Below are positions 18,221 to 39,019 of a stretch of DNA of 64,000 nucleotides, one piece after another. Location: positions 24,483 through 88,482 of the forward strand of contig CAVWLW010000075.1 of NCBI GenBank assembly GCA_963755715.1, given 5' to 3'. Position numbers and translations under genes: made by a program. Within the stretch, counting starts at the first letter, position 1; every line of letters begins with the position of its first letter. Origin of the DNA: an uncultured delta proteobacterium (lineage in GTDB: Bacteria; Desulfobacterota; Binatia; UBA9968). The notes beneath the pieces are model-generated. The model saw nothing but the letters and a program-made list of their open reading frames with translations, had not been told where the DNA came from and made no database searches.

Positions 18221-18826
18221 CTACCGCTCTAATAACAGCGCGCGGACATCGCGCAGCACGGCCTTCGAATCGGGCGACGGGCCGACGTACGCGAAACGCA
18301 TGAGCCTTTTTTGGTCGACGATCGCGGTGAGCGGTGTGTGATCGACGAGGCCCCGCCCCTTGCGTTTCACGCCGACGCCGAAGTTTCGCCAAACTTTTCC
18401 GAGCGCGCTTACTTCTCCCGTAAGAAAAGACCAATTATCAAAATCCGCGCCGTAGCGCTTGCCGTACGCCGACAAAACTTTCGGCGCATCGATTTCCGGA
18501 TCGGTGGTGACCGTCAGCAAATGAACCTGTTTGCGTTCTTCTCTGGTAAGTCCGATTTGGACTTGGCGCAACGACGCGGTTATCAAAGGACACACGTCCG
18601 GACAGGTGGTATAAGCGAACGCTACGATCACGACCTGGCCTGTTAAATTGCTCAATTCGAAGGGCGCGTCCCGCTGATCGGTGAGCACGAAATCGTTGAT
18701 CGGAACTGCTGCAAGCCGGCGCTGCGCACCCGGTTGTTTTGCGCCGGGATTGTTTCCACCGGTTGCTATTTCTCCAACCGCGAGCGCCAGGAAAAAAATT
18801 ATTACGGACAAGCTGCGGCAATACAT
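18221..18826 (-). CDS. SCO1/SenC family copper chaperone (no. 1)
   Basis: FAYTTCPDVCP (CxxxC), TTDPEID and conserved His in GLVDHT; N-terminal anchor. Confidence 0.9.
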   Translation of the reverse strand: MYCRSLSVIIFFLALAVGEIATGGNNPGAKQPGAQRRLAAVPINDFVLTDQRDAPFELSNLTGQVVIVAFAYTTCPDVCPLITASLRQVQIGLTREERKQVHLLTVTTDPEIDAPKVLSAYGKRYGADFDNWSFLTGEVSALGKVWRNFGVGVKRKGRGLVDHTPLTAIVDQKRLMRFAYVGPSPDSKAVLRDVRALLLER

Positions 18827-18830
18827 ACGA

Positions 18831-19280
18831 TTACGGTTTTTTCGTGTCGGTGGGTTCGTCGTAACCGAGGACAGTCTCCCACGGAATATTGCAGTGCGCG
18901 ACAACCAAAGTATCGAATCTCTCCCACCAGGCCAAATCGCGCCCCTCGCGGCTTAAGAAGCGAACCATTTGCAACATGTCGGTGATCTCGGCCGGACGTA
19001 GAGCGGGTTCGAACGCCGGCATCAAGCCGCGTCCCTCGGCAATAATTCGACGAATCTGATTGTTGCTCTTTCCCTGCACTGTATCTCTAAAATCAGGCGG
19101 CGCCGATGGCAAACTCGCTGCCAAGGCGCCGTCGCCTCGACCGACGGGTCCGTGGCACGCGATGCACCGCTCGGCGTAAAGCATATCCATGCGCGCGTTG
19201 CGGCCGCAGGCAACGAGCCCGATTAAGAGAAAAAATATTCGTGCAAAACCAAACCAAGTCACCGAATCCACACGTAACAC
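18831..19280 (-). CDS. monoheme cytochrome c lipoprotein with C-terminal extension
   Basis: Lipobox LVAC, CIACHG heme motif, axial Met in GLMPAF, and tail WWERFDTLVVAHCNIPWE. Confidence 0.85.
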   Translation of the reverse strand: MLRVDSVTWFGFARIFFLLIGLVACGRNARMDMLYAERCIACHGPVGRGDGALAASLPSAPPDFRDTVQGKSNNQIRRIIAEGRGLMPAFEPALRPAEITDMLQMVRFLSREGRDLAWWERFDTLVVAHCNIPWETVLGYDEPTDTKKP

Positions 19281-19323
19281 AGGAATAGCGCGCTGCCAAA
19301 CTATGCCCAGGAAGAAGTATTGT

Positions 19324-19350
19324 TTGACACAATATTTGAATTCGTGCTAC
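19324..19350 (+). promoter_or_regulatory. candidate NikR operator overlapping a -35 box upstream of nikR
   Basis: TTGACAC-N13-GTGCTAC, with the same geometry as the site at 19798. Confidence 0.6.
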
Positions 19351-19365
19351 GAATTAAACAGATCA

Positions 19366-36325: not shown

Positions 36326-36973
36326 ATGGAAACATCAAAGACTCGGTTTATCTTGCTTGGCTTGGCCGTGGTCGGCTTGGGAATCGTCTTCGGTACGGCG
36401 CTCTGGCTCAAGCTCGGACCTCACCCGCAATTCAGCCGCGACTCGTCGAACTCGATCGACGGTTTAAATCAGTATGGCCCGGTGCCGGATTTTTCATTCA
36501 TGGAAAGAGACGGCAGCGCCGTGAGCCTGTCACAGTTGCGCGGCAAAATATGGATCGCCGATTTCATCTATACGAGTTGCACCGACACGTGCCCGTTGCA
36601 AACAGCCATGATGGCGAAGCTGCAGGAAGAGTTCGCCGGCAAGCCAGACATTCAGCTCGTGTCGTTTTCCGTCGATCCCGAGCGCGATACACCGCAGGCG
36701 TTAGCGACCTATGCGGCGAAATATCAGGCCGACGCCAAGCGCTGGTATTTTTTGACCGGGCCGCGCGACCGCGTCCTACGTTTGGTGCAAGATGGTTTTC
36801 ATCTGGCGGTGGCCGCTCTGCCCAGCGATACCGATCCGAGCGGCACGATCCCGCATAGTCCGCGCTTCGTTTTAATCGACAAACAAGCGCGCATACGCGG
36901 CTACTACGATAGCCGGGAGTTGGAAGCTTTCGTCCGGCTCAAAAACGATATTGAAACTTTGGCGAAAGGATAG
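36326..36973 (+). CDS. SCO1/SenC family copper chaperone (no. 3)
   Basis: FIYTSCTDTCP, SVDPERDTP and IPHSPRFVLID. Confidence 0.92.
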   Translation: METSKTRFILLGLAVVGLGIVFGTALWLKLGPHPQFSRDSSNSIDGLNQYGPVPDFSFMERDGSAVSLSQLRGKIWIADFIYTSCTDTCPLQTAMMAKLQEEFAGKPDIQLVSFSVDPERDTPQALATYAAKYQADAKRWYFLTGPRDRVLRLVQDGFHLAVAALPSDTDPSGTIPHSPRFVLIDKQARIRGYYDSRELEAFVRLKNDIETLAKG

Positions 36974-36976
36974 GAG

Positions 36977-37849
36977 ATGGCCAACGACAGCATACGAAAA
37001 AACAAGCAAGCGGCAGCCAAAGTGAATTTGCGCGCCGGCCCGAACTGGCTGCTGTTCGGCCTGGCGCTGCTCGGCATGGCCTTGTCCGGCTATCTCACTT
37101 TTTCAGCATGGCAAGGTAGCCGCGTCGCGTTTTGCACCCAAGGCGCCGGCTGCGATGTCGTGCTCAACAGCCGTTGGTCGACGCTCTTCGGCATGCCGAC
37201 TTCTTTTTGGGGCTTTCTCACTTATGTGCTTCTGGCCGCCGTGGCTTGGAACAAAAACGTCGTCGACCAGTGGCGTTGGGCTTGGGTAATTGCGCTGTTC
37301 GGTTTGCTCTACAGCCTTTACCTGACATCGGTCGCTTTTTTTGAATTGCAGGCCGCCTGCCCTTATTGTCTGACATCGCTCGCCTTGATGGCGACCATCT
37401 TCATCGTTACCACATTTCAGCGGCCGAAGAGCTTGGCGAAATTTTCCTGGGGTCCGTGGCTCGCGAAAACCGTCGGTGTCGCCGTCGTTGCGATCCTCGC
37501 GCTCCATCTTCACTATGCCGGCTACTGGGGCGACACTCAGGGCCCGGAAGATCCGTGGGTCCGCGCTCTTGCCGAGCATCTCTCGAAGAGCGACGCCAAA
37601 TTTTACGGGGCTTCTTGGTGTCCCCACTGTGCTCAGCAAAAGGACCTGTTTGGTGCTTCGGTCAAGCGAATTCCCTATGTTGAATGCAGCCCCGGCGGTC
37701 CGCAAGCGCCTTCGGCTCCCGTCTGCAAAGAAAAGAACATCACTACCTATCCGACCTGGATCATCAATGGACAACGCTATACCGGCGTTCAACCTTTGGA
37801 TGCGCTCGCGCAGTTGACCAATTTTAAATATCAGGGGGGCAAACCATGA
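36977..37849 (+). CDS. VKOR family thiol oxidoreductase fused to a thioredoxin-like domain
   Basis: Loop Cys pair FC..GAGCDVVLNS, active site CPYC, and C-terminal YGASWCPHC...YVEC...TYPTW. Confidence 0.92.
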   Translation: MANDSIRKNKQAAAKVNLRAGPNWLLFGLALLGMALSGYLTFSAWQGSRVAFCTQGAGCDVVLNSRWSTLFGMPTSFWGFLTYVLLAAVAWNKNVVDQWRWAWVIALFGLLYSLYLTSVAFFELQAACPYCLTSLALMATIFIVTTFQRPKSLAKFSWGPWLAKTVGVAVVAILALHLHYAGYWGDTQGPEDPWVRALAEHLSKSDAKFYGASWCPHCAQQKDLFGASVKRIPYVECSPGGPQAPSAPVCKEKNITTYPTWIINGQRYTGVQPLDALAQLTNFKYQGGKP

Positions 37850-38325
37850 TCGGGCGCGCATCGATACTCCGCACCGCGATGCTTTTGACGCTTCTCACGG
37901 CGGTGATTCCTTTTTCACCTCGGCCGGCGCGCGCCGATCCGTCAAAATATCCCGAGTTTGCCCAACAACAGTTACCCGACAATATTACGCCGGTCTTTAT
38001 TCACATCGAGGAACTGGTCACGGATTTAAAAGGCGGCGCCAAGCCGCTGATCATCGACGTACGCAGCGAAGAAGAGTTTCGCGAAGTTCATATTCTGGGC
38101 GCGGTCTCCGCGCCGCTGGGCGACTTCAAAGATTATCTCAAGAGCATTCCACGCGACCGACCGGTCGTTCTCTATTGAGCGTGCCCCCATCACCTGGCCA
38201 GTTTGGCCTATGGCATTCTCTACGAAAACGGCTATCGCAACATGAAAGTGCTCGACGAAGGCATCGTCGGCTGGTACGAAAAGCACTATCCTATGGAAGG
38301 CACCAAAGCTCCGCCGCGGTCATAA
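37846..38325 (+). CDS. exported rhodanese-like protein, predicted selenoprotein (UGA at 38176-38178)
   Basis: Signal peptide, then IIDVRS..EF..HILGA. Reading through TGA gives VVLY-U-ACPHH...GYRNMKVLDEGIVGWYEKHYP and stops 3 nt before queC. Confidence 0.85.
38179..38216 (+). promoter_or_regulatory. candidate bacterial SECIS element
   Basis: Apical stem GGCCA-(GUU)-UGGCC with a G-first loop 22 nt after the UGA; lower pairing CCAU/AUGG or GUGCC/GGCAU. Confidence 0.65.
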
Positions 38326-38328
38326 AGC

Positions 38329-39019
38329 ATGGCTGACAAATGCGCGGTGATCTTTTAGCGGTGGCGTCGACTCGGCCACCGCCGCGGCGATGGCAAGAGA
38401 GCAAGGCTTCGAGTTACACGCGCTCAGCTTTCGCTACGGCCAGCGCCACGAGCGCGAGCTCGTCTCGGCGCAGAAGATCGCAAATTATCTGCACGCCAGA
38501 TCGCACAAAGAAATTGCCTTCGATCTTCGCGCGATCGGTGGTTCCGCGCTGACCGACCGAATCGAAGTCCCCAAGCGACGCAGCGCATCAGAAATCTCCC
38601 AAGGCATTCCCATCACCTACGTGCCGGCGCGCAACACGATCTTTCTGGCATTTGCATTGGCGCTCGCCGAGCGGATCGAAGCGCAGGATATTTTTTTCGG
38701 CGCCAATCAACTCGACTATAGCGGTTACCCTGACTGTCGCGAGGAATATATTCAGGCCTTTGAACGAATGGCGAATCTCGCCACCAAGGCCGGCGTCGAA
38801 GGCAAAAGCCGGATCAGGATTCAAACACCGTTGCTCAAAATGACCAAGGCGGAAATCATCCGCGCCGGCTTAAAGCTCGGGCTCGACTACGGGCTTACGT
38901 GGAGTTGCTACGACCCGCTTGCCGATGGCCGCGCATGCGGACGATGTGACAGTTGTCAGTTAAGGTTAAAAGGGTTCGAAGAGGCCGGCGCGGTTGACCC
39001 TATTCCGTATGCCGAGTGA
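38329..39019 (+). CDS. queC: 7-cyano-7-deazaguanine synthase (frameshift in T-run near 38354)
   Basis: [33 protein letters not shown] and TWSCY...ACGRCDSC. Confidence 0.92.

Follow-up and report, generated by a model that had tools for sequence, protein, structure and literature searches.

The 64,000-nucleotide stretch of DNA analysed here (the window; contig CAVWLW010000075.1 of assembly GCA_963755715.1, from an uncultured delta proteobacterium of the Binatia, UBA9968) contains a block of about 20 kb in which all genes from nikR to a rhodanese gene lie on the + strand, and a cytochrome c gene and an SCO gene (SCOa) are divergently oriented on the - strand. We give a probability of roughly one half to the reading that this block is a nickel-repressed uptake block upstream of a copper-starvation chaperone block, followed by a redox trio of SCO, a VKOR-thioredoxin (Trx) fusion and a selenocysteine (Sec) rhodanese, with heme-copper oxidases as the likely clients. 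The whole would be a lineage-specific metal-acquisition supercluster made of three units with two different metal sensors, and it probably helps the organism to obtain scarce metals for respiration. The reading builds on gene content, conservation, NikR boxes, leader motifs, a Sec codon and domain fusions, and proposes from them the metals bound, the direction of copper flow, the mechanism of arrest and the client. A preliminary description made from the DNA letters had seen here a single pathway mixing nickel and copper machinery. Pfam and NCBIfam profile matches to the window proteins, with motifs read from the translations, recover every gene family it named, nearly item by item, and two sensors, one for each metal, are a simpler explanation of the nickel/copper mixture.

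The first gene of the block, nikR (19366–19782, + strand), is the only nikR copy in the window's own genome (G000; 7.4 Mb in 76 contigs, 93.6% complete, with the window at the end of one contig). It encodes a ribbon-helix-helix repressor that passes the NCBIfam equivalog cut-off (NF003381, 174.8 bits against a cut-off of 105), matches PF08753 and PF01402, and aligns to P. horikoshii NikR (2bj1) at E=5e-35. The QH...HxH...C residues are kept, also in comparison with H. pylori NikR, and we take these (His, His-x-His, Cys) to be the residues of the high-affinity nickel site. The protein is thus predicted to be a bona fide nickel sensor, and the earlier suggestion that NikR might here have been turned to copper is disfavoured by the four nickel-site residues and by the equivalog match.

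Putative NikR boxes, GTAACAC-N13-GTGTTAC, were found by comparing the spacers of the window with those of loci L014, L015 and L018, which come from a locus scan that took one genome per species and gave 18 loci (window proteins were mapped by tblastn, and the locus counts below are taken from that table). A position weight matrix was built from eight instances. Candidate box 1, a 27-bp palindrome upstream of nikR (19324–19350), scores 28.4 and candidate box 2, directly upstream of the TonB-dependent receptor (TBDR) gene (19798–19824), scores 24.7. Only three sites in the 7.4-Mb genome score 20 or more: these two, and one on contig C33 at about 278240 (locus L024, 2581–8711) before a gene for a 1228-amino-acid fused CydD-CydC-type thiol-reductant exporter. 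Predicted boxes also precede the TBDR or major facilitator superfamily (MFS) gene in L014, L015 and L018, and znuA in L028 and L029; the latter two lie in short nikR-znuA spacers and were not among the instances used for the matrix. The matrix scan found no box before any block gene downstream of the TBDR gene. In the proposed scheme plentiful nickel would cause NikR, acting on two boxes, to shut off nikR itself and the uptake operon of Unit A (19.3–28.1 kb), whose TBDR, MFS transporter, TonB, His-rich methyltransferase and His3-type cluster A-I importer would take up Ni(II), or nickel together with similar ions. We note that genes for a substrate-binding protein (SBP) and an Amidohydro_2 protein adjoin the box-bearing exporter on C33, and that L018 has between two NikR boxes a different MFS gene (2635–3807), whose product shares 27% identity with the window's MFS, begins with a His-rich stretch and may be a metal transporter under NikR control.

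The second sensor would be the product of a leader gene (28167–28544, + strand), a peptide of 125 amino acids with an N-terminal transmembrane (TM) segment, a PHxVHH motif, one cysteine, and RAPP two residues before the stop codon. The hydrophobic segment precedes PHxVHH, a 305-bp gap follows the open reading frame (ORF), and the DUF4198, CopC and CopD genes lie downstream. RAPP, C71 and PHxVHH are invariant in 10/10 aligned sequences, and G000 holds only one such leader ORF. An exhaustive profile search gave 197 representative clusters (50% identity); among the best 150 of these, RAPP is present in 132, HxVHH in 144 and CXXC in none. According to the part of Roy et al. (2022, PMC9426467) that was available, translation arrest at the C-terminal RAPP of B. 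pertussis CruR keeps downstream copper-uptake genes on, and a CXXC 45 residues upstream of RAPP senses copper, upon which the arrest is released and Rho-dependent termination follows; the same part places CruR homologues, mostly from Proteobacteria, at the head of operons with TonB-dependent transporter, Sco, PCuAC, CopC, YcnI and AhpC/TSA genes. In the window's leader family 47–48 residues separate the conserved cysteine from the Arg of RAPP, and in Bp2923 (CruR) the first cysteine of the CXXC is spaced likewise. DUF2946 is the only Pfam family that recurs among the leader relatives (45/95, always weakly, best E=2.3e-4), and the window leader itself has no match to PF11162 (DUF2946) at E<=0.01. 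Because the DUF2946 matches are weak and found in 45/95 relatives, we call the leader "CruR-like" and not a member of the CruR family; to judge by its motifs it is a distant, CXXC-less relative of CruR, and the preliminary description's remark on a "RAPP leader" was apt. In L004 and L013 the leader is the first gene of the copper part, and NikR, TBDR and ABC genes are missing along with the NikR box, so the nickel and copper units are separable. When copper is scarce, ribosome arrest at RAPP would, by analogy with Bordetella CruR, keep the genes of Unit B (28.2–35.5 kb) expressed; sensing of copper by the nascent chain, through its one Cys and PHxVHH, would release the arrest and let transcription terminate.

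The periplasmic copper handlers of Unit B, all encoded on the + strand, would be a set of DUF4198, CopC and CopD-HVH that is the analogue of YcnI and YcnJ, a free HVH protein, a pair of Cox11-like proteins with an exported methyltransferase, an SCO protein and DUF4382. The periplasmic metal-binding protein DUF4198 (28850–29667; PF10670, 59.8 bits) has its full-length form in L016 and L003, where the signal peptide is followed by His as the mature N-terminus. CopC (29639–30016; PF04234, 73 bits; NF033814, 73.7 bits, under the cut-off of 95) is likewise predicted to have His as its first mature residue, with a cleavage site judged by eye. CopD (30025–31283; PF05425, 69.6 bits, above the cut-off; NF033808, 118.5 bits against a cut-off of 195) is fused to a C-terminal periplasmic HVH beta-sandwich, and the adjacent gene encodes a free, exported HVH protein (31299–31712) that has a His/Met-rich N-terminus and, in alignment, invariant H83, H85, H111, D121 and H122. 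The AlphaFold2 (AF2) model of the latter is an Ig/FnIII-like sandwich with pLDDT >90 over residues 50–137, and a Foldseek search with this model returned generic Ig/FnIII-like domains alone. Among 97 longer HVH homologues 92 are CopD fusions (2 of these also carry CopC) and 1 further is a cupredoxin fusion. The N-terminus of the free HVH protein of L029 contains MDHS-like repeats, which resemble those of Pseudomonas CopA and CopB.

Cox11-like paralogues 1 (31727–32638) and 2 (33393–34286) are 39% identical and keep an invariant His. Paralogue 1 has a TM anchor, a helical/NTF2-like domain and a Cox11-fold domain (PF04442, 26.3 bits against a cut-off of 25); paralogue 2 scores 31 bits with PF04442, and the C-terminal domain of its AF2 model has apo-Cox11 (1so9) as best PDB match, with a TM-score of 0.68 and 24% identity. 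In families f76 and f77 QCFCF is intact in 4/4 Cox11-like proteins, one of which scores 90.9 bits on PF04442. The gene between the two paralogues encodes an exported methyltransferase with a signal peptide (32752–33342; Methyltransf_31, PrmA) that resembles archaeal protein-lysine N-methyltransferases below the cut-off (NF041081, 135.6 bits against 200). SCOb (34264–34887; PF02630, 107 bits; start codon uncertain) and an exported DUF4382 protein (34830–35549; PF14321, 25.8 bits; frame lost after about 35251) complete the unit. Intact relatives of the latter, such as that of L002, are about 192 amino acids long; its protein atlas clusters are DUF4382 of Binatota, and the other clusters from atlas look-ups, all of Binatota or Nitrospirota, have no assigned function. 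All three SCO proteins of the block keep CxxxC...H (CPDVC...H twice, CTDTC...H once). Because of the HVH fusions to CopD, CopC and cupredoxin, the CFCF of the sister families, the SCO CxxxC...H, the N-terminal His of CopC and the CruR-like leader, the core chaperones point to copper. As to the exported methyltransferase, its signal peptide is clear, and a periplasmic S-adenosylmethionine (SAM)-dependent enzyme is unexplained.

The preliminary description had also raised the possibility that these folds were repurposed for nickel, and a nickel pathway in which the SCO, Cox11-like, HVH, CopC and DUF4198 folds now serve to capture Ni(II) and deliver it to the importer is, in our judgement, unlikely. 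It would account for NikR at the head of the block, with boxes before the operon, and for the loss of one copper-binding cysteine, but not of the invariant His, from the window's Cox11-like paralogues; N-terminal His and Cys2His sites can bind Ni(II). Characterised DUF4198 proteins bind nickel and are encoded in the vicinity of genes for NikR and TonB receptors (PMC12537917, available part), while others bind zinc (PMC12663993, also in part). Against such a takeover stand the HVH fusion partners, which are CopD, CopC or cupredoxin only, the copper-type family of the leader, the CFCF kept in f76 and f77, and the Met-rich HVH N-termini, including the MDHS-like repeats of L029, which suit Cu(I) and not nickel; moreover, the f76 cluster persists without NikR and mostly without known nickel enzymes. 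With these fusions, the sister-family CFCF and the copper-type leader, the idea of folds repurposed for nickel does not find support.

The two-sensor reading assigns the last genes of the block to Unit C (36.3–38.3 kb), a translationally coupled set of SCO, VKOR-Trx and Sec rhodanese that would set the thiol/selenol redox state of Cys-based chaperones, or reduce Cu(II). SCOc (36326–36973, + strand; PF02630, 102.5 bits) ends 3 bp before the gene for the VKOR-thioredoxin fusion (36977–37849, + strand; PF07884, 88 bits), which has a membrane CPYC, loop cysteines and a WCPHC in its Trx domain and whose stop codon overlaps the start of the rhodanese gene (ATGA). The exported rhodanese (37846–38325, + strand) has an in-frame TGA at 38176–38178 in its active-site loop, within the motif LY-U-A-C; reading it as Sec adds 48 residues that form a proper rhodanese C-terminus. 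The TGA and the frame downstream of it (LY-U-A-C-P-H-H) are kept in 8/8 related loci that reach the rhodanese gene, and as Sec machinery G000 has SelB and a gene for tRNA-Sec. Downstream of the TGA lies a hairpin whose energy, as a selenocysteine insertion sequence-like element, is no different from that of shuffled sequences (z=-0.54). Among NCBIfam models the rhodanese comes closest to NF041203, rhodanese-related (seleno)protein, which it matches with 59.6 bits where the cut-off is 115; selenoproteins of this type form an established class (listed in a table of PMC1088965, available in part). The preliminary description had closed its gene list with a Sec rhodanese; a Sec rhodanese is indeed present, at 37846–38325, and the last ORF of the region described (38390–39019) is QueC by its Pfam match. 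The description's view of a set in which genes for uptake stand together with metal-chaperone folds, exported or anchored in the membrane, and with thiol/selenol redox proteins (here a trio) holds, the Sec residue being backed by the conserved TGA, the tRNA-Sec and SelB. The divergent pair, SCOa (SCO1/SenC with CxxxC and distal His; 18221–18826, - strand; PF02630, 86 bits) and a small c-type cytochrome with CxxCH (18831–19190, - strand; PF13442, 39 bits), may have the same redox role as Unit C; the pair is present again in L004 and L013, and all three of L004, L013 and L015 have a 72–74% identical copy of the cytochrome c.

The genes of Unit A downstream of nikR are all on the + strand. The TBDR (19841–22043; about 660 amino acids, plug and barrel; PF07715 plug) is intact in L012, L014 and L017; against solved structures it gave plug-level matches alone (BtuB, Cir, PirA), and we therefore assign it no substrate class. 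An MFS transporter (22511–23743; PF07690, 166 bits; a 78% identical copy in L017) and TonB (23736–24635; PF03544, 67 bits) follow, and the TonB gene overlaps that of a cytoplasmic class I methyltransferase with a His-rich N-terminus (24632–25279; Methyltransf_25, _12 and _11). The latter gene lies directly before the SBP gene in L002, L003, L005, L006 and L015 as well. The importer consists of a cluster A-I (ZnuA/PsaA-type) SBP (25287–26297; PF01297, 236 bits), an ABC ATPase with His-rich termini (26300–27163; PF00005; top NCBIfam matches AztA and MntA) and an ABC-3 permease (27264–28100; PF00950, 216 bits). The best NCBIfam model for the SBP is AztC (180 bits against a cut-off of 350), and no equivalog cut-off is reached. 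Its metal site is His-His-His; aligned with PsaA, the SBP has His in place of Glu205 and Pro in place of Asp280, so that the fourth ligand, Asp, is gone.

The gene order of the window is reproduced in 18/18 loci from genomes of other species and in four more distant loci, and it is shared by three families (f1, f76 and f77) at protein identities down to about 30%. The exported methyltransferase is present in 17/18 loci and HVH, free or fused, in 16/17; where the loci reach far enough, the SCO gene after Cox11-like 2 is found in 16/16, DUF4382 in 15/15, ZnuABC in 11/15 and SCOc-VKOR in 9/14, and CopC/CopD/DUF4198 are present in 6/18. The Cox11-like homologues found are labelled Candidatus Binatia. 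A search of 201 genomes of the class, with per-family counts that leave G000 out, found full-length Cox11-like genes only in the window's order (8/13 genomes in f1, 7/11 in f76, 2/2 in f77) and none in the remaining 174/201 genomes, all of which lie outside that order. Families f76 and f77 have a shorter operon of ZnuA, ZnuC and ZnuB followed by Cox11-like, DUF4382, SCO and VKOR-Trx genes, to which L029 (f77) adds a RAPP leader and HVH between ZnuB and Cox11-like and L026 (f76) a rhodanese-like match. The f77 operon is preceded by NikR, and its leader and copper genes come directly after the permease behind a single NikR box. This arrangement in f76 and f77 is the minimal, older form of the block. 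We note that in L002 (4844–7381), and at the equivalent place in L008, L012 and L017, inserts between HVH and Cox11-like 1 encode a second RAPP leader, a BNR beta-propeller lipoprotein of 440–450 amino acids, a ResA/TlpA-like thioredoxin and a third Cox11-like paralogue, and that L015, whose proteins are 64–95% identical to the window's, comes from a record labelled as a Chloroflexota metagenome-assembled genome, so mis-binning is possible.

Across the 61 genomes of the window's order (related genomes, so these and the following order-wide counts are descriptive and not statistical) the Cox11-like cluster is present in 39. The preliminary description had let its pathway depend on whether the genes occur together elsewhere, and this check, now run, shows a gene set conserved across genomes in the 18/18 loci, the four distant loci and the 39/61 genomes. 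That the block is a chance accumulation of independent metal genes at one variable spot, with no shared function, we consider very unlikely. Its modular content (CopCD-DUF4198 in 6/18 loci, ZnuABC in 11/15, SCOc-VKOR in 9/14), foreign insertions between DUF4382 and SCOc, and gene remnants in two spacers (see below) are what such a history would leave, but the order is shared by three families down to about 30% protein identity, stop and start codons overlap or nearly touch at SCOc/VKOR, VKOR/rhodanese and TonB/methyltransferase, and NikR is contiguous with the cluster in 11/14 genomes. The last figure comes from the 18/61 NikR-positive genomes of the order, of which 14 also have Cox11-like genes; in 11 of the 14 the two are on one contig, no more than 17 kb apart.

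The clients of the two-sensor system would probably be heme-copper oxidases encoded elsewhere in the genome. By Pfam the window flanks contain neither a nickel enzyme nor an oxidase subunit, as the preliminary description had said, and hold housekeeping genes and an rRNA operon instead. G000 encodes heme-copper oxidases at three loci, one NiFe hydrogenase and five SCO proteins, of which the block accounts for three; it has no canonical Cox11 and no Caa3_CtaG, and canonical Cox11 was found in none of 150 genomes sampled from the phylum. Urease was not found in G000 at its 93.6% completeness, a six-frame search of G000 gave no AYxCSFR form-I CoxL motif of Mo-Cu CO dehydrogenase, no PCuAC was found, and Pfam gave no P-type ATPase in the block. 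PF02461 (PmoA/AmoA of the copper membrane monooxygenase) had no match in G000, the control genomes being silent as well, and neither SodN nor LarA was found in five NikR-positive genomes, with the SodN control also silent. The 61 genomes were tested for NikR, hydrogenase, urease and COX1. Hydrogenase or urease occurs in 9/18 NikR-positive and 8/43 NikR-negative genomes. No client enzyme was found linked to the set.

Several observations weigh against the two-sensor reading. On the copper side, the characterised DUF4198 members bind nickel or zinc, not copper, in the available parts of PMC12537917 and PMC12663993; the window's Cox11-like pair reads QCGF and ECAL, so that the second cysteine of CFCF is lost and only the first aligns; and the leader has no CXXC, which was necessary for copper sensing in CruR according to the available part of PMC9426467. 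Oxidases occur in 56/61 genomes of the order and the cluster in 39/61, which makes the cluster dispensable for oxidase assembly as such; because oxidases are near-universal with or without it, the cluster is an accessory and not an obligatory oxidase assembly factor. On the nickel side, 9/18 NikR-positive genomes have neither urease nor hydrogenase, so the link between NikR and nickel enzymes is loose. Counts from a promoter and terminator scan were at the level of shuffled sequence and give no operon limits. A picture of copper alone is further opposed by the importer's ZnuA-like His3 site and by cytoplasmic parts (ATPase termini, methyltransferase) that are rich in His. Finally, in f76 the ABC importer lies directly before Cox11-like, DUF4382, SCO and VKOR genes though NikR is absent: NikR and NiFe hydrogenase are each found in 0/27 f76 genomes, the ABC-Cox11-like-SCO-VKOR operon in 18/27, and urease in only 3 of those 18. 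A CydDC-type exporter 60–68% identical to that on C33 lies directly upstream of znuA in f76, and an Amidohydro_2 gene also flanks znuA in L026. The importer may thus belong to the copper system, and the division into nickel and copper units may be artificial. The f76 genomes are the strongest evidence that importer, thiol exporter and chaperones form one functional network whatever NikR does, and this linkage without NikR is the chief reason why we hold the clean two-unit reading at only about 0.5.

One integrated copper route is accordingly worth weighing, and we regard it as possible, although rather improbable. The cluster A-I importer would bring copper, or copper and nickel indiscriminately, into the cytoplasm, on a "cytoplasmic detour" of the kind that CcoA provides in Rhodobacter; this copper would come from, or be passed on to, the SCO, Cox11-like, HVH and DUF4382 proteins, and NikR would be a lineage-specific safety switch that closes a promiscuous path at high nickel. 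ABC, Cox11-like, DUF4382, SCO and VKOR genes are adjacent in f1, f76 and f77, including the NikR-less f76, where 15 of the 18 cluster-bearing genomes lack urease, hydrogenase and NikR; the leader and copper genes of f77 directly follow the permease with one NikR box; and the CydDC-type exporter bears a NikR box in G000 while its relative adjoins znuA in f76. To our knowledge, however, no cluster A-I system imports copper. The ZnuA-like His3 site of the SBP, cytoplasmic parts that are rich in His and not in Cys or Met (which suits nickel or zinc better than Cu(I)), and a block without a P-type ATPase likewise speak against this route.

A further, rather doubtful, possibility is that the nickel and copper parts work as a single machine for telling apart two square-planar ions of similar chemistry. 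Ni(II) and Cu(II), as ions or as chelates, would enter the periplasm by the same TonB-dependent path. There cytochrome c, SCO, VKOR-Trx and the Sec rhodanese would reduce copper, so that it is trapped as Cu(I) on the Cys-based Cox11-like and SCO proteins for use in respiratory enzymes. The His3 SBP would then be free for the inward transport of Ni(II), and each metal would have its own reporter, NikR for one and the His-type, CXXC-less arrest peptide for the other. Such a machine, if real, would explain the linkage of importer and chaperones in three families.

The block is best seen as a combination of known kinds of system: the regulon of a NikR, a copper-starvation operon of CruR type, uptake resembling that by CopCD/YcnIJ, and chaperones of the Sco/Cox11 kind. 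Like the cruR-crtA/bfrG-crpH operon of B. pertussis (Bp2923, DUF2946; PMC9426467 and PMC12914433, in their available parts), it has a small exported or TM-anchored upstream ORF with RAPP a few residues before the stop codon, a Cys about 48 residues upstream of RAPP, a long spacer after the ORF, copper genes behind it (CopC, Sco, YcnI-like and AhpC/TSA genes are the typical followers) and a TonB-dependent receptor in the same locus. It differs in that the leader family lacks CXXC (0/150) and has an invariant PHxVHH instead, with weak DUF2946 matches, and in that the leader lies inside a longer co-oriented block, behind an ABC importer, in another phylum (Binatia), where it is known from genes alone. 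NikR regulons with TBDR and DUF4198 genes (Rodionov et al. 2006, as cited in the available part of PMC12537917) share the nickel ligands, the palindromic operator and the TBDR, TonB and DUF4198 neighbours; in L014 ExbBD also accompanies TonB near NikR. The window's importer is of the ZnuA/PsaA-type cluster A-I, not NikABCDE, NikMNQO or NiCoT, its operon continues into copper-chaperone genes, and a CydDC-type exporter bears the third box.

Cox11/CtaG and Sco1/SenC are the CuB and CuA assembly chaperones of heme-copper oxidases. The block's proteins share with them the single TM anchor, the Cox11 beta-sandwich fold, the SCO CxxxC...H and, in the sister families, CFCF, but the window's Cox11-like proteins have an extra helical/NTF2-like domain of about 150 residues and have lost the second Cys in both paralogues, and their genes are not adjacent to oxidase genes and, in the genomes of the class searched, were found in one order only. 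A comparable copper-starvation-induced set of importer and chaperones for oxidase biogenesis is reportedly encoded by pcuABCDE of B. japonicum. The ycnKJI operon of B. subtilis, copper-starvation-induced according to the available part of PMC8424229, shares a CopC/CopD-type importer and a periplasmic partner with an N-terminal His; in the window the partner is DUF4198, not YcnI/DUF1775, CopD carries HVH, and there is no YcnK or CsoR regulator. With the "LYCAU" rhodanese selenoproteins of NF041203 the window's rhodanese shares a single rhodanese domain, Sec in the active-site loop and a neighbouring Cys; its order is U-A-C, not C-A-U, it scores below the cut-off, and it is exported and translationally coupled to VKOR-Trx.

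The CXXC-less RAPP leader family, the HVH domain, the two-domain Cox11-like proteins, DUF4382, the exported lysine-methyltransferase-like protein and the VKOR-coupled U-x-C rhodanese are uncharacterised parts. Bacterial copper acquisition is much less understood than copper resistance, and a second, putative family of RAPP arrest peptides (197 clusters) without CXXC offers a direct test of metal sensing by the nascent chain. The block also has a Cox11-type chaperone in a lineage whose sampled genomes from the wider phylum have no Cox11, and odd parts in a His-cluster domain attached to CopD, a lysine-methyltransferase-like protein exported into a compartment with no known SAM, and a Sec rhodanese coupled to VKOR. 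None of the literature retrieved mentions a cluster A-I importer so firmly tied to copper chaperones and, as in some members of the lineage, to NikR too; searches on Binatota and copper and on DUF4382 gave no paper describing the cluster, and the supplementary tables of PMC9426467 and PMC12537917 may list relatives.

Four genes of the block are broken by single-nucleotide indels, in the TBDR gene (about 20249), DUF4198 (a deletion at about 28943), CopD (likewise a deletion, at about 30809) and DUF4382 (35251–35255). All four are absent from loci L016 and L001, which are 93–97% identical in DNA, and at three of the places (20249, 30808 and 35251) the window also disagrees with contigs from independent public runs: an independent DNA contig lacks one base at 20249, where the window has one extra, and an RNA-library contig has an extra G at 30808, in agreement with the single 419-amino-acid CopD-HVH ORF of L016. 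DUF58 and HtrA-like protease genes (43084–43978 and 57820–58984) and the N-terminus of QueC (38330–38390) are frame-split too, as are two COX1 genes on G000 contigs C30 and C3, which fits an indel-prone assembly. Because closely related loci and independent contigs lack the breaks and other genes are similarly split, the broken genes of the block are probably assembly errors and not pseudogenes.

Three spacers of the block carry traces of other genes. The end of the spacer between the TBDR and MFS genes (22044–22510, 467 bp) has a frame that resembles the C-terminal strands of DUF4198, probably a gene remnant, and a DNA contig from another sample omits 226 bases of it (22145 to 22372). The spacer after the leader (28585–28812) contains a CopC-like C-terminal remnant, at a place where L003 and L015 have intact second CopC paralogues. 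Between DUF4382 and SCOc a fragment of a PMT_2-type glycosyltransferase gene lies on the - strand (35704–36207), and L017 has at the same spot a 4-kb insertion with a full PMT_2 gene and a methyltransferase gene; this gap is a variable spot that sets apart the SCOc-VKOR-rhodanese unit.

Contigs from three metatranscriptome studies cover parts of most block genes, and such contigs span the methyltransferase/ZnuA and the methyltransferase/Cox11-like 2 junctions; these are records of presence in RNA libraries only, in which DNA carry-over is possible. The stretch containing the block is present in soil and rhizosphere metagenomes of several studies, and its hosts are abundant uncultured soil bacteria.

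Just beyond the QueC gene, a 699-amino-acid protein encoded on the - strand (39040–41139) combines an ABC ATPase with an AAA-associated C-terminal domain, MgtE_N and CBS domains; its gene adjoins two BPD_transp_1 permease genes and is kept beside queC in L005 and L006. On the other side of the block the - strand has, at 7029–7204 and 7337–12785, a complete rRNA operon with tRNA-Ile and tRNA-Ala and, just downstream of its 5S gene, a match to group II intron D1-D4 (49 bits).

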